This document shows, in pieces, positions 20,273-45,614 of a stretch of DNA of 45,809 nucleotides. Position numbers and translations under genes: made by a program. The stretch comes from Candidatus Woesearchaeota archaeon. Lineage in GTDB: Archaea > Nanobdellota > Nanobdellia > Woesearchaeales > SKGA01. The stretch lies in NCBI GenBank assembly GCA_050187915.1, contig JBFXLI010000007.1, positions 1-45,809 on the forward strand, read 5' to 3'. How positions within the stretch are numbered: position 1 is the first letter of the stretch; every line of letters starts with the position of its first letter. The notes under the pieces are model-generated. The model searched no databases, was not told the DNA's origin, and saw only the letters and a program-made list of their open reading frames with translations.

Positions 20273-20392
20273 GCATCGGTAGTCTAACGGCTAGGATACG
20301 GGCCTTCCATGCGCTAGAATCAAAGATTCGCTGAATCTTCTCTAGTGAGAAGATAGCCTGTGATTCGGGTTCGAATCCCGGCCGATGCACCA
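20273..20392 (+). tRNA. tRNA-Gly(UCC) with a 45-nt intron at the canonical 37/38 position (20310-20354) and an encoded CCA
   Basis: The hand-folded cloverleaf has acceptor GCATCGG/CCGATGC, anticodon stem CGGGC/GCCTG, loop CTTCCA[intron]A, T arm TCGGG-TTCGAAT-CCCGG and discriminator A followed by CCA. Confidence 0.85.
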
Positions 20393-39664: not shown

Positions 39665-39791
39665 GCGGGAGTAGTTCAGCCTGGTTAGATCGCCACGCTC
39701 ATAAATGGAACTTGAGCGATGAGAAGAAATTCGATGATTATCAAGTTGCGGTGTACCGTGGAAGTCCGGAGTTCAAATCTCCGCTCCCGCA
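39665..39791 (+). tRNA. tRNA with a CAU anticodon (elongator Met or Ile2) and a 52-nt intron at or next to position 37/38
   Basis: The fold has acceptor GCGGGAG/CTCCCGC, anticodon stem CCACG/CGTGG and loop CTCATAA. The anticodon is at 39700-39702 and the intron spans about 39705-39756. The T arm is CGGAG-TTCAAAT-CTCCG and the discriminator is A. The G1:C72 pair and the absence of a GGG/CCC stem argue against an initiator tRNA. Confidence 0.85.
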
Positions 39792-39865
39792 CCTTACTTT
39801 TCTATTAGCTATGATTTGAACATGCTCAAACTTTTCAAGTTTGGCACCCTTCACTTTGTTCATGG

Positions 39866-39881
39866 AATCTCCGCTCCCGCA
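39866..39881 (+). repeat. Displaced copy of the tRNA(CAU) 3' end (AATCTCCGCTCCCGCA), 90 nt downstream of the genuine one at 39776-39791
   Basis: The 16-nt identity is exact. With the preceding GTTCA and a 3-nt insertion (GTTCAtggAATC...) the copy reaches back into the T-loop. The intervening 74 nt contains GATTTGAAC, the reverse complement of the T-loop GTTCAAATC, and a 7-bp hairpin CAAACTTttcAAGTTTG. Confidence 0.85.
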
Positions 39882-39926: not shown

Positions 39927-40202
39927 ATGATTAATGATATTGTAGATGAATTGTTGATTGAAAATAAAAAAGTAACTCAAGCGCATGTTAGAAGAAAATA
40001 TTTTTCTAGAATTATTCATATTGGTATTTATGGAGATGAACTTTGTCCTAATTGTATCTCTGATAAGGAAAAAATTAATGAATTTATGAAAAAATATGGT
40101 GAAAAAAACACATATTATGCTTTAATTGACAATGAAAATTCTGGTTTTATTCTTGTAAATTTAAATGGAGAAGAACCAATTTCTGAAGCATACAAATTCT
40201 AA
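39927..40202 (+). CDS. Hypothetical protein (91 aa)
   Basis: It is supported only as an ORF with an ATG start and has no recognisable motif. Confidence 0.4.
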   Translation: MINDIVDELLIENKKVTQAHVRRKYFSRIIHIGIYGDELCPNCISDKEKINEFMKKYGEKNTYYALIDNENSGFILVNLNGEEPISEAYKF

Positions 40203-40205
40203 ATG

Positions 40206-40305
40206 GCGCCACGACCCAGATTGTTAATCATTTATGATTAACCAACGAACGAAGCAAAGCGTAGTGACTATGTGAACTGGAAGTTCAAATCTGTTAACAA
40301 CTAAA
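40206..40305 (-). repeat. 100-nt repeat carrying a tRNA-Ser 3' end, copy 1
   Basis: It matches 40821-40920 at 98/100 positions. Read on the minus strand it contains these parts in order:
- CAGATTTGAACT, an inverted T-arm copy.
- TCCAGTTCA.
- A 50-nt insert with the 9-bp hairpin GTTAATCAT/ATGATTAAC.
- AATCTGGGTCGTGGCG, followed by CCA in this copy. Confidence 0.85.
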
Positions 40306-40329
40306 GAAGTTCAATTTGAGAAGAAAGAG

Positions 40330-40410
40330 CGCCACGACTCAGATTTGAACTGAGAATCCGTAAGGACCGGTTTTCGAGACCGGCGCAATACCGAGTTATG
40401 CGATCGTGGC
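40330..40410 (-). tRNA. tRNA-Ser(CGA), class II, no intron
   Basis: The hand fold is GCCACGA TC GCA TAACTCGGTAT TGC G CCGGT CTCGAAA ACCGG TCCTTACGGATT CTCAG TTCAAAT CTGAG TCGTGGC G. The anticodon is at 40374-40376. It has a long variable arm and a G discriminator. Confidence 0.85.
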
Positions 40411-40459
40411 ATGAATTTACTAATGATACGACTCGCGACTGAAGCGTTTATGCTTCACG

Positions 40460-40479
40460 TATGCGATCGTGGCATGAAT
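40460..40479 (-). repeat. Displaced copy of the tRNA-Ser(CGA) 5' end plus 6 upstream nt (ATTCAT GCCACGATCGCATA), 63 nt upstream of the genuine one
   Basis: The 20-nt sequence is identical to 40397-40416. The 43-nt spacer between them is GC-rich and contains the hairpin TGAAGC/GCTTCA. Confidence 0.85.
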
Positions 40480-40483
40480 GTAA

Positions 40484-40774
40484 TTATTTTATTTCTTTTT
40501 TCATTTCTTCAACAGTTTTTTTGAAAGCAGAAATTTGTTTTTCAGATATTGTTCCATATTTAATATAATTTATTTTTATGTTTCTTAGAAATGCATTTTG
40601 TTTATAATATTCTTCAGGAATATCTAATATTTTTTTTACAAATGGATCTGTTATTTCTTTGTTTAATTCTTCTTTTTGACATTCGTAACATATTACATAT
40701 GGTTGTTTTTTTGTAGTCATAACATAATTTATTTTGCATTTGTTGCATTTTTGTTTGAATTGAATTTTAACCAT
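40484..40774 (-). CDS. Hypothetical zinc-ribbon protein (96 aa) between the two tRNA-Ser modules
   Basis: It has the Cys pairs CNKC...CYEC at the N-terminus and no other motif. Confidence 0.45.
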   Translation of the reverse strand: MVKIQFKQKCNKCKINYVMTTKKQPYVICYECQKEELNKEITDPFVKKILDIPEEYYKQNAFLRNIKINYIKYGTISEKQISAFKKTVEEMKKEIK

Positions 40775-40820
40775 ATTTTTAGTAAAAATAAGTTATTTAT
40801 AAAATTGTTGAGAATAAAGA

Positions 40821-40920
40821 GCGCCACGACCCAGATTGTTAATCATTTATGATTAACCAACGAACGAAGCGAAGCGTAGTGACTATGTGAACTGGAAGTT
40901 CAAATCTATTAACAACTAAA
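40821..40920 (-). repeat. 100-nt repeat carrying a tRNA-Ser 3' end, copy 2
   Basis: See the feature at 40206-40305. The two differences are g/a at 'gcaaagc' vs 'gcgaagc' and g/a at 'ctgtta' vs 'ctatta'. This copy is followed by CTC rather than CCA. Confidence 0.85.
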
Positions 40921-40941
40921 TATTTAAAGATAGAATGAAAA

Positions 40942-41062
40942 TGGCGCCACGACCCAGATTTGAACTGGGAATTCCTAACGGAACAAGCTTTCCAGGCCTA
41001 CGCTCAGATAAGCAACCTCTCACTTATATGATTTGCGCAATACCGGGTTATGCGATCGTGGC
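40942..41062 (-). tRNA. tRNA-Ser(GGA), class II, with an encoded CCA and a ~35-nt non-canonical intron at about position 27/28 (41000-41034)
   Basis: The hand fold is GCCACGA TC GCA TAACCCGGTAT TGC G C[35 nt]AGGC CTGGAAA GCTTG TTCCGTTAGGAATT CCCAG TTCAAAT CTGGG TCGTGGC G CCA. The anticodon is at 40991-40993. The exact intron borders are ambiguous by 1-2 nt. Confidence 0.75.
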
Positions 41063-41111
41063 ATGAATGTAATGAATGACATGACTCGCGATGGGAACGA
41101 TTAGGTGACCA

Positions 41112-41127
41112 TATGCGATCGTGGCAT
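41112..41127 (-). repeat. Displaced copy of the tRNA-Ser(GGA) 5' end (AT GCCACGATCGCATA), again exactly 63 nt upstream of the genuine one
   Basis: The 16-nt sequence is identical to 41049-41064. The 47-nt spacer shares the core AATGA.A.GACTCGCGA with the spacer of the other module. Confidence 0.85.
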
Positions 41128-41218: not shown

Positions 41219-41524
41219 TTAAACCATTTCGATTTCGATGTTTAAACCTTCTGGGATTGGAACTCTCATAATTAATCTTAGAGCTCTTTCATCAACACCT
41301 AAATCTAACAGACGTTTGTGTACTCTCATTTCGTATCTTTCCCATGAAGCTTTTCCTTCTCCACTAGGGCTTTTACGAGTAGTAATTTTTAATTTTTTAG
41401 TTGGTAAAGGAATTGGTCCTCTTAAAACTACTCCTGTTTTTTCTGCAATAGAACGAATGTAGTCACAAGTCTGGTTTATTTTATCTATATCTGTGCTTGC
41501 TAATTTTATTCTTGCTTTTTGCAT
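41219..41524 (-). CDS. rps10: 30S ribosomal protein S10
   Basis: It contains ARIKLASTD..., [42 protein letters not shown]. Confidence 0.92.
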
Positions 41525-41642: not shown

Positions 41643-42068
41643 TTACATGGAGCTTCGTTTTAAGAGTTTTTCAACTTCAGGTTTAATAACATTTTTCATG
41701 TAAATTCTATATGTTTCTTCTTGTTTTGTGAATAAATTTAATTCATATTTTCTTTCGTTATTTATTTTGTGGGATAAAAGAGAAACAAATGGGTCTATAT
41801 AGTCTATGTTTGTTTGTATAGGTGTTTCATTTATTATTTTATATATTTTATAATATACTTAAAAAATATATGTGTTCATGGCTTTAATTACTGTTTTTGC
41901 ACGTCGTTTTGATTGTTCTTCTGATCGAGTTAGATAATCTGTAACTGCAGTTTTGTATGTCGGAGGTTTTGTTTTTATTTCTGTTGTGGAAAGTTGTGAC
42001 CAAGCTTCTTTTTGTTCTTCTAATGACATTTCCTCATTTGGATTTGGATATATTTTATCTTCAATCAT
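41643..42068 (-). pseudogene. Hypothetical gene split by one in-frame TAA: a 69-aa ORF at 41859..42068, then 71 further open codons down to the stop at 41643-41645
   Basis: The triplet frame was followed by hand. The TAA at 41859-41861 is in frame with VYYKIYKIINETPIQTNIDYIDPFVSLLSHKINNERKYELNLFTKQEETYRIYMKNVIKPEVEKLLKRSSM*. The only Met in the downstream part is at codon 54. Confidence 0.5.
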
Positions 42069-42104
42069 AAGTATTTCAATATTGTTAAAATATTTAAAAC
42101 TTTC

Positions 42105-43103
42105 TTAATTTACTATATTTTGTAATTTGTTCTTTTTAAATGCTTCAATATTATCTTTTGTTGTTTCAAGAATTCTCTCTAATGCTTCTTTTGTATAAAA
42201 TGCTAAATGAGGTGTTAAAATTACATTTTCTCTTCCTAGTAATTTATGATTTTGTATGAGTATTTTTGCTTCTTTTTTTGTTAAATTTTTTAATCCTGAA
42301 TTCTTAACTTCTTTTTTCATATCATTTTCAAGTTCTAAGACGTCTAGTGCGCAACCTGAAATTTGTTTTTTATCTAAAGCTTCTATTAGTGCTTTTGCAT
42401 CTATTATTTCTCCTCTACTTGTGTTTATTATTTTTACTTCTTTTTTCATTTGTGAAAATGCAGATTTATTTAGTAAATGATAGGATGATTTTGTGTATGG
42501 AAGATGTAAAGAAATAAAATCTGAATTTTTGTAAAGTTGATTTAATGTTGTGTATTTAAAGTTTAATTTGTTTTCTAATTTTTTATTTGGATATAAGTCG
42601 TATGCAATAATATTCATATCAAATGCTTTTGCGTATTTTATTACATGTTGTCCTATGTTTCCTGTTCCTATTATTCCTATTGTTTTATTTTTTAAATCTG
42701 TTCCCATTAATCCTTTGTATTGAAAATTTCCTTTTCTTGTTTGTCTTGAGGCTTCAAGTAAATTTCTATTTAATGCTAAGAGTAATGAAAATGTATATTC
42801 TGCGATTGTATTTTGTCCATATTGTGGAACGTTTGAAACTTGTATGTTTCTTTTTTTGCATTCTTGTAAATTGATATGATCAAATCCTGTTGACATTGTT
42901 GCTATAAATTTTAAATTTGGAAGTTGGTTTAAAATTTCTTTAGTTATTTTTGATTTAACAAAAATTGAAATTATTTCTGTGTCTTCGAAATTTTTTGCGT
43001 TAGTTTTAGTTAATGATTGTGTTCCAAAAAAAGTATCTTTTTTAAATTGTTTTTGAAAGTAATTTATTTCCCAAGGTTCTAAATCAAAGAATGCTATTTT
43101 CAT
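42105..43103 (-). CDS. D-isomer-specific 2-hydroxyacid dehydrogenase family protein
   Basis: It contains GIIGTGNIGQHVIKYAKAFDMNIIAYD (NAD-binding), INTSRGEIIDAKALIEAL, GCALDVLE and LTPHLAFYTKEA. Confidence 0.85.
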   Translation of the reverse strand: MKIAFFDLEPWEINYFQKQFKKDTFFGTQSLTKTNAKNFEDTEIISIFVKSKITKEILNQLPNLKFIATMSTGFDHINLQECKKRNIQVSNVPQYGQNTIAEYTFSLLLALNRNLLEASRQTRKGNFQYKGLMGTDLKNKTIGIIGTGNIGQHVIKYAKAFDMNIIAYDLYPNKKLENKLNFKYTTLNQLYKNSDFISLHLPYTKSSYHLLNKSAFSQMKKEVKIINTSRGEIIDAKALIEALDKKQISGCALDVLELENDMKKEVKNSGLKNLTKKEAKILIQNHKLLGRENVILTPHLAFYTKEALERILETTKDNIEAFKKNKLQNIVN

Positions 43104-43150
43104 GTTGTTTGTTTGGATTAGGTTGTTTATAAAATTATTTAAAATTAAAA

Positions 43151-43567
43151 TTATTTAGAGATATTTTGTAATATGTCTAAAATATCTTTTGTTGAATAAA
43201 TTTTTACAAAGTTTTGATTTTTTAATTCTTTATCATTACTCCAAATAGAACAATTTAGTTTTAGTGCTAAAGCAATATAATCCATATCTTTTGGATCTGG
43301 AGAAATGTCTTTTGCTCTTTCAATATACTCAAAATATTCATCAATTGAAACTATGTAAATTATTTCTTTTAAAATATCTAATATTAATTCTAATTCTTTT
43401 TCACTTTTTTTAGTTTTTCTTAGAATTAAAGATTTATATTTTTCAAATTCTTCAAAAATAAATTTTGATGTATATAGTTTAAGATTTGAATTAAATAATA
43501 ATTTTGTTGTTGTGCTATTTTTTATTAAAGCAGCAAATAAAATATTTGCATCAAGTACTAAATTCAT
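43151..43567 (-). CDS. PIN-domain protein (VapC-like toxin), second paralog
   Basis: It contains MNLVLDANILFAALIKNS and WSNDKELK. It overlaps the upstream antitoxin-like gene by 4 nt. Confidence 0.7.
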   Translation of the reverse strand: MNLVLDANILFAALIKNSTTTKLLFNSNLKLYTSKFIFEEFEKYKSLILRKTKKSEKELELILDILKEIIYIVSIDEYFEYIERAKDISPDPKDMDYIALALKLNCSIWSNDKELKNQNFVKIYSTKDILDILQNISK

Positions 43568-43788
43568 TTTTTAGAATATTTTTTAGCAACTTTTTCACTT
43601 ACTTTTGCACCCAAACTTAAAGCATCCTTTTCAGTAAATGTGCTGTATTCAGTAAATTTTTTAAATTTTTCTAACATATCTAATTTTTGTTTTATTGCTT
43701 CTCTTGCAACTGCACTCCAATTTATGTCTTGAAATTTATCCATTTCTTGTTTCATTTCTTCTGAAATTGACAAAGTTATACTTACCAT
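43564..43788 (-). CDS. Antitoxin-like small protein, second paralog
   Basis: It contains MVSITLSISEEMKQEMDKFQDINWSAVAREAIKQKLDMLEKF. Confidence 0.6.
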   Translation of the reverse strand: MVSITLSISEEMKQEMDKFQDINWSAVAREAIKQKLDMLEKFKKFTEYSTFTEKDALSLGAKVSEKVAKKYSKK

Positions 43789-43870
43789 TTTATTACCTTT
43801 TGTATGTTATGTTTATTATGTGTAATATGTTTAAATATTTAAATGTTTGTATTTGTATCTAAATGAGATT

Positions 43871-44716
43871 TTACGGAAGTTTGGTTAATATATCTAGATT
43901 TTCAATTTTACTGAATGCAAACCACTTTTTTCCTAGATCTTTTAAGGAAGCTCCAATATGATAAATTTCTTGTTTATCTATGATTATGAATCTATCATGT
44001 GATTTATTAAATTGTATTAATTCTATGTTATTATATTGTTGATTATATTTTGTTAGTGATAAATTTAATTTTTCAGTTATATTTTTTGTGTAAATTATTA
44101 CTTTTATTTTTGTTTGTGAAAATAAAATTAAAGTATTTTCATCAATATAATTATCTATAAGAATGATTTCTTGTTTTGCATTTTTTATTAAATCGTTGAT
44201 AAATTTGAAGGCATCAAATATTTGTCCATCATAAAAAATTCCTTTTTCTGGTTTTATATTTTTTTCTTGAATAAGATTAAATATTTCCTCTATTTTATTG
44301 TCGTGAGTTAATATTTGTTTTTCTGTTTTATCTAGTCGTTGAAATATTTCTGCATTTGATTGTAAAAAATGTCTCATTTGAACAAATGCATTCATAATAT
44401 TTATACTTACATTTATGGCCATTTTTGATTTTAATATTGCTGAAAGCATAGCAACACCTTGTTCTGTAAATACATATGGACGAAATCTTTTTTTATTCCA
44501 ATATTTATTTGTGGTCACAATTTGTGACCGCAAAAATTTAATATCTTTTTCTTCAATTTGAAACATGAATTCTTCAGGAAATCGTTCTATATTTCTTTTT
44601 ACTGCTTGATTTAAAGCTTTAACTGGAATCTCATATAGTTCAGCCAAGTCTGAGTCAAGCATTACTTGTTTTCCACGAATTGTGTAGATTTTGTTTTTTA
44701 TTGTTAATTCGTTCAT
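43871..44716 (-). CDS. ORF6N-domain (KilA-N-related) DNA-binding protein
   Basis: It contains IYTIRGKQVMLDSDLAELYEIPVKALNQAVKRNIERFPEEFMFQI and FTEQGVAMLSAILKS. Confidence 0.75.
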   Translation of the reverse strand: MNELTIKNKIYTIRGKQVMLDSDLAELYEIPVKALNQAVKRNIERFPEEFMFQIEEKDIKFLRSQIVTTNKYWNKKRFRPYVFTEQGVAMLSAILKSKMAINVSINIMNAFVQMRHFLQSNAEIFQRLDKTEKQILTHDNKIEEIFNLIQEKNIKPEKGIFYDGQIFDAFKFINDLIKNAKQEIILIDNYIDENTLILFSQTKIKVIIYTKNITEKLNLSLTKYNQQYNNIELIQFNKSHDRFIIIDKQEIYHIGASLKDLGKKWFAFSKIENLDILTKLP

Positions 44717-44780
44717 TAAAAAAATATATATTTAGTGTTATTTATAATTGCTTAAGAAAAAATCGAAAACTTTCCGAATT

Positions 44781-45614
44781 TTAATCTAATGGAGATTTTA
44801 TTTTTATTAATTCTGGTTTTACAATATGTAAATATGTTAATGTTGTTCTTGCTTCGTTGTGTCCTAACAATGATTGAACTGAAGTTATATCGCTTCCTTG
44901 CTCTAAAAGATGTGTTGCGAAGGAATGTCTGAAGGTATGTGGGTGAATGTGTTTTTTCCATTTTAATTTTTTTGTTATTTGGTGGATTATCATTTCAACA
45001 CTTCTTGTTGTTAAATGTGATTTTCTTCCTGGGAAAAGATATATTGGATTTTGTTGAAGTATTGTTTTTAGTTCTTGTGTTAAACATTTCGGTATAATGA
45101 AAGGTCTATCTTTATTTCCCTTGCCTTTTCGTACCCAACCAAGATTTGTTGTTAAATCTAAATCTTGTGGTTTTAGTTTTGTAACTTCAGAAACTCTTAG
45201 TCCTGCTCCATACATTAAAGAGATAAGAAGTTTGTGTTTTGGATTTTGTATTGCGTTTAGGAAGATTAATACTTCTTGTTTTGTTAAGCATGTTGGAAGT
45301 GTTTTTGGTGTTTTTGAGTATTTAATATTTAATCGCATACTTTTTCTTAAAACTTCTTCCATTAGAAATTTTATTGAGTTTAGTGCAACATTTAATGTCG
45401 AACCTGCAATTTCATCGTTAAATTTTGACCAGTGTAATTTATTTTCCATGAATTGGTTTAAGAATTCGTTGCAATCTTTTTTTGAAATTTGTTTTATTGG
45501 TTTATCTTTTGTGAAAAGGAGGAATTTTTTGACGTAGAAAAGATATGTATGTATTGTTTTGTATGAAAGTTTTCTTCTAAGCATTTCTTTTTTCATAGAT
45601 TCTATTGGATCCAT
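44781..45614 (-). CDS. Tyrosine recombinase (XerC/D/XerA-like integrase family)
   Basis: It contains GAGLRVSEVTKLKPQDLD (catalytic Arg) and HPHTFRHSFATHLLEQGSDITSVQSLLGHNEARTTLTYLHI (HxxR, H and Tyr). Confidence 0.88.
   Translation of the reverse strand: MDPIESMKKEMLRRKLSYKTIHTYLFYVKKFLLFTKDKPIKQISKKDCNEFLNQFMENKLHWSKFNDEIAGSTLNVALNSIKFLMEEVLRKSMRLNIKYSKTPKTLPTCLTKQEVLIFLNAIQNPKHKLLISLMYGAGLRVSEVTKLKPQDLDLTTNLGWVRKGKGNKDRPFIIPKCLTQELKTILQQNPIYLFPGRKSHLTTRSVEMIIHQITKKLKWKKHIHPHTFRHSFATHLLEQGSDITSVQSLLGHNEARTTLTYLHIVKPELIKIKSPLD

Follow-up and report, generated by a model that had tools for sequence, protein, structure and literature searches.

Displaced ends of tRNA and ribosomal protein S10 genes form miniature, stackable and strain-variable units in Woesearchaeota

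Two tRNA-Ser genes and one Met-type tRNA gene in a 45,809-nucleotide (nt) stretch of DNA from a Candidatus Woesearchaeota archaeon (contig JBFXLI010000007.1 of assembly GCA_050187915.1; hereafter the window) are bordered by displaced copies of tRNA gene ends. Each displaced end, together with the short DNA that separates it from the gene, is called a unit here. The units are a real feature and are widespread in the lineage: they are displaced gene ends of the attachment-site (att) type, miniaturised and stackable. They vary between strains and are not needed to make tRNA. We observe their anatomy, a strict orientation, stacking, gain and loss between strains, empty sites, units shared between different tRNAs and displaced ends that resemble alleles. 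The explanation that we favour, with moderate confidence, is that gene ends were replaced by repeated recombination while the old end was retained, leaving miniature att-type units without cargo. No description of this architecture was found in the literature.

The window has a G+C content of ~26%, its tRNA genes carry archaeal introns, and homologues of its ribosomal protein S10 gene assign it to the Woesearchaeota/Nanoarchaeota, within the DPANN lineage. On the minus strand, the order is the S10 gene (41219-41524), module 1, the gene of a 96-residue protein (40484-40774; ORF96, where ORF is open reading frame) and module 2. A preliminary description made from the letters alone had assigned the same five-part layout to both modules (a copy of the tRNA 5' end, a spacer, the complete tRNA, a second spacer and a repeat that ends as a tRNA 3' end), and all of these parts are present. 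Their minus-strand coordinates are as follows.

Module 1
41112-41127, minus strand: outer 5' copy (AT plus tRNA positions 1-14), an exact 14-mer 63 nt upstream of the tRNA start
41063-41111, minus strand: 5' spacer of 49 nt with hairpin ATGG..CCAT, core TCGCGAGTC and leader-like end CATTACATTCAT
about 41083-41091 (position counted by hand): core TCGCGAGTC, which is GACTCGCGA on the plus strand
40945-41062, minus strand: tRNA-Ser(GGA), the functional inner gene, a clean ARAGORN tRNA-Ser(GGA) once the intron is removed
41032-40998, minus strand: its non-canonical intron, 35 nt at 29/30
40919-40944, minus strand: T-rich trailer of 26 nt, CCATTTTCATTC...
40822-40918, minus strand: 97-nt repeat with antisense T-loop (about 40897-40907), TCCAGTTCA and a 50-nt insert
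40838-40857, minus strand: 9-bp hairpin in the 50-nt insert
40822-40837, minus strand: displaced outer 3' copy, AATCTGGGTCGTGGCG

Module 2
40460-40479, minus strand: outer 5' copy (ATTCAT plus positions 1-14), a 20-nt exact direct repeat at 63-nt offset
40411-40459, minus strand: 5' spacer of 49 nt with hairpin TGAAGC-ATAAAC-GCTTCA and core TCGCGAGTC (about 40430-40438 in plus-strand numbering, counted by hand)
40330-40410, minus strand: tRNA-Ser(CGA), the functional inner gene (ARAGORN; Rfam tRNA, 52.3 bits)
40304-40329, minus strand: T-rich trailer of 26 nt, CTCTTTCTTCTCAA..., resembling the sequence beyond the outer copy of module 1
40207-40303, minus strand: 97-nt repeat with antisense T-loop CAGATTTGAACT (40282-40293) and hairpin (40223-40242)
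40207-40222, minus strand: outer 3' copy, GGA-type and not CGA-type

The 14-mer GCCACGATCGCATA (tRNA positions 1-14) occurs exactly four times in the window, with 0.01 occurrences expected, at 41112-41125 and 41049-41062 in module 1 and at 40460-40473 and 40397-40410 in module 2, all on the minus strand. The 3' segment AATCTGRGTCGTGGCG (positions 58-73) also occurs four times (0.03 expected). The displaced 5' end had been reported to lie exactly 63 nt from the genuine one as a copy of 16-20 nt, which is precisely what we find: the outer 5' copy starts 63 nt before the tRNA start in both modules, and the duplicated block measures 16 and 20 nt in modules 1 and 2, respectively. The outer 3' copy is exactly 123 nt beyond the inner copy in both modules and terminates the repeat, of which the window holds just two copies. 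A length of 100 nt, two differences and an identity of about 98% had been given for this repeat; the identity and the two mismatches stand, and the length is corrected to 97 nt. Two spacer lengths are also revised, from about 24 nt to 26 nt between tRNA and repeat in both modules (equal in length and scarcely similar in sequence) and from 43-47 nt to 49 nt between the 5' 14-mers. The intervals between inner and outer copies are 49 nt on the 5' side and 107 nt on the 3' side, with no ORF within either interval of the window modules. The outer pieces span only positions 1-14 and about 49-73, and a complete tRNA stands between them.

Inside the 97-nt repeat, the 12/12 reverse complement of the T arm of tRNA-Ser(CGA) and the 9-bp hairpin were both found as described before. 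The suggested recombinase core with arms GATTTGAA and TTCACATA looks weak by eye, with arms complementary at 5/8 positions; the real palindrome is TGAACT-TCC-AGTTCA. Behind tRNA-Ser(CGA), the outer 3' copy has the GGA-type T stem CTGGG and not CTGAG, and therefore it is not a copy of the preceding tRNA. Recent copying from one module to the other, or gene conversion, best explains why the two repeats are nearly identical. The repeat does not fold into an unusually stable structure (z = -0.8 and -1.4), and the outer 5' copy of module 2 with its spacer is moderately stable (z = -2.8). A search of the window and of one unit from a relative (L035) against Rfam returned tRNAs only and no other RNA family. 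The only TATA-like box for module 1, read by eye, is upstream of the outer 5' copy.

A third tRNA of the window carries a 3' unit that the preliminary description had overlooked, as it had the S10 gene ends of relatives and the role of GATTTGAAC as an invariant landmark of 3' units. Its features are listed below.

39665-39791, plus strand: CAT-anticodon (Met-type) tRNA with a 54-nt intron (Rfam, 48 bits)
39792-39881, plus strand: its 3' unit, consisting of a 21-nt trailer, GATTTGAAC, a hairpin and a 16-nt outer copy
39813-39821, plus strand: GATTTGAAC, the reverse complement of the T-loop of this tRNA
39825-39844, plus strand: 7-bp hairpin CTCAAACTT-TTC-AAGTTTGG
39866-39881, plus strand: outer copy, an exact 16 nt (own positions 58-73), 90 nt downstream

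This unit also folds with moderate stability (z = -2.4). Its right half resembles the first 3' unit of tRNA-Ser(UGA) in locus L090, and the hairpin arms covary. A fourth tRNA of the window (20273-20389) has no appendix. Displaced-end units are confined neither to serine tRNAs nor to this genome.

For comparison, we collected loci from relatives and metagenomes, labelled L001, L002 and so on. Eighty S10-anchored loci were gathered from genome assemblies (the Woesearchaeota ones total 1.15 Mb) and contained 59 tRNA candidates by a T-loop/acceptor screen; ORF96 homologues, 52 in number, served as a second anchor for orthologous loci, with the same neighbourhood in L093-L099. The order S10 then tRNA-Ser is conserved in relatives. 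With a copy defined as the last 14 nt at no more than one mismatch within 400 nt of the tRNA, seven of the 59 candidates have a downstream copy of their 3' end and none an upstream one. Copies of the first 14 nt show the mirror image (6/59 upstream, 0 downstream), and five further real cases came from a search of metagenomes for duplicated 5' ends. The copies follow the sequence of each tRNA, as in L001, where GCCAAGG... stands both in the tRNA and in the upstream copy. The inner edge of the duplicated block mostly coincides with tRNA position 13-15 or 57-60, with 8, 35 and 53 as outliers; its outer edge is 0-11 nt beyond the tRNA, as in att identity blocks, and the direct repeats are 8-39 nt long across loci.

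Units are found on tRNA-Ser(GGA/CGA/UGA) and tRNA-Ala in related Woesearchaeota, often with two or three stacked, and many loci have a 5' unit alone or a 3' unit alone. Stacks comprise three 107-nt 3' units in L002, two 3' units in each of L090 and L095, two identical 110-nt 3' units in L098 and two 5' units in L092. Close relatives differ in these numbers: L002 with three units and L003 with one encode an identical S10 protein. Similarly, L098 and L099 encode an identical ORF96 homologue, and L099 has, before tRNA-Ser(CGA), a 43-nt insert with the 8-nt direct repeat GCCAAGAT, where L098 has no 5' unit; L099 also differs from L098 inside the tRNA and in the 3' unit. In L093 and L094, whose ORF96 is 83% identical, the tRNA-Ser(GGA) gene keeps the 29/30 intron, has neither a 5' nor a 3' unit and thus represents an empty site. 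The intron of the window tRNA-Ser(GGA) is at the same position in L093 and L087. The units are not obligatory for expression of tRNA-Ser, because close relatives have these empty sites.

Related units occur beside different tRNAs. The 5' spacer family of module 1 precedes tRNA-Ser(UGA) in L090 and tRNA-Ser(GGA) in L098, at ~80% identity by eye (31 nt aligned at 90% with L090 by blastn). A 3' family with the layout GTAGTTCC-hairpin-GGTGC-hairpin-AGCAC, whose stems show compensatory changes, is behind the GGA gene in L098 and behind the CGA gene in L093, L096 and L099. At orthologous sites, the unit sequences belong to unrelated families. The module 1 trailer looks homologous to the trailer of tRNA-Ser(UGA) in L095, and the region upstream of tRNA-Ser(CGA) in L095 and L096 looks like the module 2 5' unit minus its outer copy, with a spacer homologue that appears decayed. 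The tRNA-Ser directly after S10 is GGA in the window and UGA in L095, and the same 5' unit is found before GGA (window, L098) or UGA (L090). Judged by these sequences, isoacceptor bodies may have been exchanged between conserved tRNA-Ser ends. Another match of the metagenome search, contig L089, begins (1-101) with about five tandem copies of the 19-nt GCCACGATCGCATAGCCCT, which holds the tRNA-Ser 5' 14-mer, in a context that looks more G+C-rich.

Larger inserts exist at the same junction. The insert in L092 is 1.45 kb long with one ORF, and an antisense-T-loop-like GATTGAAC is located about 55 nt before its outer copy; L025 has 1.3 kb, and L083, from a haloarchaeon, has 8 kb. Decay is also seen, as the outer copy in L035 has three mismatches.

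The units share a layout. A 3' unit consists of a T-rich trailer, the antisense T-loop GATTTGAAC, one or two covarying hairpins and the displaced end, with 45-60 nt from the antisense segment to the outer copy; only GATTTGAAC and the displaced end are common to ten aligned 3' units. The motif GATTYGAAC occurs within 150 nt downstream of a T-loop in 22 cases (0.76 expected) and upstream in two; the 22 include near-duplicate strains, and we estimate about a dozen to be independent. The 5' units of tRNA-Ser consist of positions 1-14, a variable hairpin, TCGCGA..GTC and a leader-like end. Perfect stems of at least 6 bp that start no more than 6 nt from the junction are present in 5/12 5' units, compared with 1.4% of shuffles. 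We dropped an antisense mask on the 5' copy as a general claim, since the match is non-significant in most units. A two-hairpin module (CWCAAAAA..TTTTTGG, CAC/GAC and a second hairpin such as GAGAATCTTTGATTCTC) recurs in L035 (8942-9040), L027 (about 9990), L039 (about 5671), L012 and L038, in contexts that include the inside of a displaced T-loop, exactly between A57 and A58 (L035), a tRNA intron (L027) and the region after S10 (L039). We give it little weight as a shared unit: its first hairpin is simple and A/T-rich and matches unrelated viral contigs by chance.

The end of a protein gene is stacked in the same manner. The last 7-12 codons of S10 and the stop codon are repeated one or two more times downstream in four loci.

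L007, 10267-10470: stacked S10 3' ends
L034, 265-420: stacked S10 3' ends
L056, 3244-3400: stacked S10 3' ends
L039, 5563-5760: stacked S10 3' ends

Differences among the copies over the retained codons are, as far as seen, all synonymous; L007 has three versions of GLNIEIEMV-stop. Every copy in L007 and in L034/L056 has an antisense segment of its own behind it (14/14 in L007). The segments in L034 and L056 differ by a compensatory change (GGGACTT/AAGTCCC vs GGGACTC/GAGTCCC), covary with the inner copy and not with the outer one, and are followed by a small covarying hairpin. L034 and L056 share 83% identity in the S10 body, and their outer and inner copies agree at 31/39 and 35/39 positions, respectively. 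These identities and the synonymous-only differences mean that the displaced S10 ends look like recently functional alleles and not like decaying local duplicates.

If gene ends were replaced by recombination, as we favour, the inner genes would be the working tRNAs and the outer pieces would be former ends of the same kind of gene. Each event would bring a fresh gene end with 45-110 nt of non-coding DNA and shift the previous end outward. On the 3' side, this DNA would comprise the T-rich trailer, the inverted T-loop copy and one or two small hairpins, and on the 5' side a hairpin, the TCGCGA..GTC core and the leader. Stacks could form through repeated events or unequal exchange. The primary event would be catalysed by a recombinase, probably a tyrosine integrase or an Xer-like enzyme, and ordinary homologous recombination may then have carried units from strain to strain, the outer copy and the gene body serving as homology arms. 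That L099 differs from L098 also inside the tRNA and in the 3' unit fits such a spread. The units are probably transcribed as a long leader and trailer that would be trimmed by normal end processing, because the single TATA-like box of module 1 is outside the displaced 5' end. Stacked att-type scars, or a small non-autonomous element that targets tRNA genes, had both been put forward in the preliminary description, and both fit the comparative evidence of orientation, stacking, strain differences, empty sites, shared units and kilobase inserts.

Several observations weigh against gene-end replacement. None of the 45-110-bp units holds a recombinase gene or an ORF, and we know of no described integrative element that is not far larger. 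Viral contigs scanned for four unit motifs gave no donor element, only nothing or chance matches. The 5' blocks end at position 8, 13, 14, 15 or 35, so that their boundaries are not strictly fixed, which makes a site-specific enzyme a poorer fit. The two 97-nt copies of the window are 98% identical between dissimilar flanks. Parts of the units also show more conservation than is expected of neutral DNA: GATTTGAAC is invariant at all nine positions in 10/10 aligned units, its distance from the T-loop is 58-60 nt in 18/22 cases (usually 59) across trailers that can barely be aligned, and the unit hairpins covary. These observations suggest an active structure-dependent mechanism or some function. 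An invariant GATTTGAAC, its fixed 59-nt spacing, covarying hairpins beside every displaced end and antisense segments that track the inner S10 copy give the units more order than simple scars would retain.

Such order leaves room for functional structured leaders or trailers, treated below, and for a reading that we regard as doubtful, in which the units would be undescribed, tiny (about 60-125 bp), non-coding and structure-dependent mobile modules of DPANN archaea. A module would then carry a replacement gene end and an antisense segment, which is GATTTGAAC in the case of T-loops and a matching antisense in that of the S10 end; this segment would pair with the target or with the module's own end and guide insertion into tRNA T-loops, D-loops or last codons, leaving the gene unharmed. 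IS200/IS605 and IS110 elements, with their guide pairing, and integrons, with their folded attC site, would be parallels. Errors of local replication or repair could produce inverted copies as well, if templates are switched or synthesis folds back at the T and D arms, which are prone to form hairpins, and unequal crossing-over follows; neither mobile DNA nor a dedicated recombinase would take part. We consider this rather improbable. Displaced ends do come with an inverted copy of the block start (GATTTGAAC after T-loops, the 14/14 antisense in L007 S10), as in a duplication-inversion-duplication pattern; block lengths vary between 8 and 39 nt; and identical tandem units (L098) and the copy numbers of L002 vs L003 are what unequal exchange would give. 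Local duplicates, however, should be identical, whereas the displaced S10 ends differ at synonymous sites only, the outer copy behind the window's tRNA-Ser(CGA) has a GGA-type T stem, related units are found behind different tRNAs in different genomes, and the L034/L056 antisense covaries with the inner copy instead of the outer one.

The units could also have a function in the primary transcript, as structured leaders and trailers with antisense segments that, by pairing with the T-loop or the 5' end, control folding, processing order, stability or termination of tRNA and S10 transcripts. The invariance of GATTTGAAC at a near-fixed 58-60 nt from the T-loop speaks for this, as do hairpins that covary in one family (CCTC/GAGG, CCAT/ATGG, CCAC/GTGG) and in another (GCAAAAC/GTTTTGC vs GCAAATC/GATTTGC), the excess of junction-near stems in 5' units, the stability of the module 2 5' unit and of the tRNA-Met unit, and the position of the TATA-like box of module 1, by which the unit is probably transcribed. 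Yet L093 and L094 have the same tRNAs without units, strains vary in the presence and number of units, orthologous sites hold unrelated unit families, the 97-nt repeat has unremarkable z values, the match of the 5' spacer antisense to the outer copy is non-significant in most units, and outer copies have decayed in some lineages. We therefore judge a regulatory role to be unlikely. It is highly improbable that the outer pieces serve as exons, be it in alternative splicing, with nested introns or in the manner of split tRNAs, or pair as an outer acceptor stem for processing, even though the lineage is rich in non-canonical introns, including T-loop introns at 59/60 and D-loop introns, and the two outer copies, 5' and 3', pair around the inner tRNA in the RNAfold structure. 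No bulge-helix-bulge (BHB) motif joining equivalent positions of inner and outer copies was found, by a noisy scanner that also missed the real introns of the window and thus counts little. Identical direct repeats cannot form the central 4-bp helix together, the 4 nt that precede most outer copies do not pair with TTCA (by eye), the spliced product would equal the unspliced one, and many loci have one unit alone. The 50-nt insert of the window lacks significant similarity to T-loop introns of relatives, and the related idea that an older intron-containing gene left the outer pieces behind was likewise unsupported on this ground. Alternative exons, split-tRNA pieces and obligatory pairing of leader or trailer, all raised in the preliminary description, thus found no support, as relatives make the same tRNAs without units. 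Finally, stacked copies that look like alternative alleles, such as S10 ends with synonymous differences, might be produced by a metagenome assembly that concatenates strain variants of one locus via shared k-mers. The probability of this artefact is close to negligible: the shared blocks of the window are only 14-20 nt, shorter than assembler k-mers usually are, the architecture recurs in independent assemblies (JGI, ENA, metagenome-assembled genomes at NCBI, Logan), L093 and L094 come from different sources with the same sequence in the regions read, and the DNA specific to the units (antisense T-loop, hairpins) has no allelic counterpart at the locus.

Integrative elements classically leave displaced tRNA ends as their footprint. 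Here, this footprint occurs almost without the element, at both gene ends, stacked and strain-variable, in DPANN archaea with tiny genomes. If the units are miniature mobile modules, a recombination activity would be rewriting the ends of essential genes (tRNAs, S10) while keeping the genes intact, and there would be a concrete and testable route by which archaeal tRNA genes gain introns and fragments. The units are located exactly where the unusual tRNA introns of the lineage occur, and such tiny modules could be the raw material for its many T-loop and D-loop introns. The stacked ends would be a record of past allele replacements at a locus. Annotation of tRNA genes in such genomes will be misled by the fragments and by the long, structured flanks.

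Three ORFs in the neighbourhood of the modules are listed below.

40484-40774, minus strand: ORF96, between the two modules and outside the units, conserved in Woesearchaeota, family unassigned
39927-40202: ORF of 91 residues between the outer 3' copy of tRNA-Met and the convergent outer copy of tRNA-Ser(CGA)
44781-45614, minus strand: Xer/integron-integrase-like tyrosine recombinase of 277 residues, 3.7 kb from the modules and outside the repeats

A Pfam search gave no family match for ORF96. The recombinase scores best against the integron-integrase and archaeal XerA models, below both cut-offs (202 bits against TIGR02249, cut-off 265), and no evidence ties it to the units. It belongs to a region (41859-45614, minus strand), upstream of the S10 gene and a 2-hydroxyacid dehydrogenase gene, that also encodes a PIN toxin, preceded by a small ORF without family match (a possible antitoxin), and an ORF6N-domain protein; this region may be a mobile or defence islet. 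At the other end of the window, the 14-nt direct repeat TCATCACATTGTTC occurs at 1660 and 1798 (138 nt apart; region 1560-1900), apparently within a coding sequence that runs off the window start; no complete ORF is listed there, and we take it for a repeat within a protein, with no relation to the tRNA units.

Among known systems, tyrosine integrases of the SSV and pNOB8 types leave attL/attR direct repeats and tRNA gene fragments in archaeal tRNA genes (Sugahara et al. 2012, PMC3293823; van der Gulik et al. 2023, PMC9897764), and integrative elements form attL/attR at the 5' or 3' terminus of these genes (PMC3293823). The units agree with att repeats in having an intact reconstituted tRNA whose terminal segment is repeated directly on the outer side, which is the gene-preserving side for the 3' copies (7 vs 0) and the 5' copies (6 vs 0) alike, in an identity block that starts inside the tRNA and extends through the end of the gene, and in mismatches between copies. 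Closely related genomes are heterogeneous in both cases, with empty sites here in L093/L094 and in L098 where L099 is occupied, and kilobase-size versions exist in the lineage (L092, L025). Unlike att elements, only 45-110 bp lie between the repeats, with no integrase, ORF or cargo, the nearest recombinase gene being outside the repeats; both gene ends are affected and units are stacked, an antisense T-loop at near-fixed spacing and covarying hairpins border the displaced end, and the end of a protein gene (S10) behaves alike.

Mobile elements have also been proposed to create introns and split tRNAs (Sugahara 2012, PMC3293823). Split or permuted tRNA genes supply pieces of a tRNA that is otherwise missing, whereas here a complete tRNA lies between the outer pieces. 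Transposition of archaeal tRNA introns has reportedly been described by Fujishima et al. T-loop introns at 59/60 are common in Woesearchaeota tRNA-Ser(GGA), for example after S10 in L007, L010, L018, L020 and L021, and these introns end in TTTGAA, which pairs with the T-loop beside the 3' exon; D-loop introns (15/16, 21/22) are also frequent, and ARAGORN misses most intron-bearing genes of this kind. The unit junctions are in the same two loops as these non-canonical introns, and T-loop introns also have an antisense T-loop. The intron antisense, however, abuts the 3' exon and forms a BHB, whereas the unit antisense is 45-60 nt away, after a complete tRNA, without a splice motif.

Archaeal integrons are said to have been described by Ghaly et al. 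in 2022. Like integron cassettes, the units are stackable, have a single ORF or none and end in an imperfect inverted-repeat site with GTT...AAC-type cores (GTTCAAA/TTTGAAC), and an Xer/IntI-like recombinase gene is 3.7 kb off. Unlike attC, the unit cores TTTGAAC/GTTCAAA do not fit RYYYAAC/GTTRRRY, there is no attI beside an intI gene, and the target is a tRNA loop. Integron integrases have about 320-340 residues, whereas the recombinase of the window has 277 and scores below the integron-integrase cut-off. The units do not fit a miniature inverted-repeat transposable element or another DNA transposon, which would have terminal inverted repeats and a target-site duplication of fixed length: the direct repeats are 8-39 nt long, and the S10 copies differ synonymously. 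Cis-mobilisable elements (CIMEs) are att-flanked DNA without recombination genes; in streptococci, they accrete one after another, in tandem arrays, at a target gene's 3' end. CIMEs are bacterial, kilobases long and visibly derived from integrative and conjugative elements, whereas the units here are archaeal, 45-110 bp long and without a known parent element; the two have in common that tandem att-bounded units without their own integrase stand at the 3' end of a conserved gene in a copy number that varies between strains.

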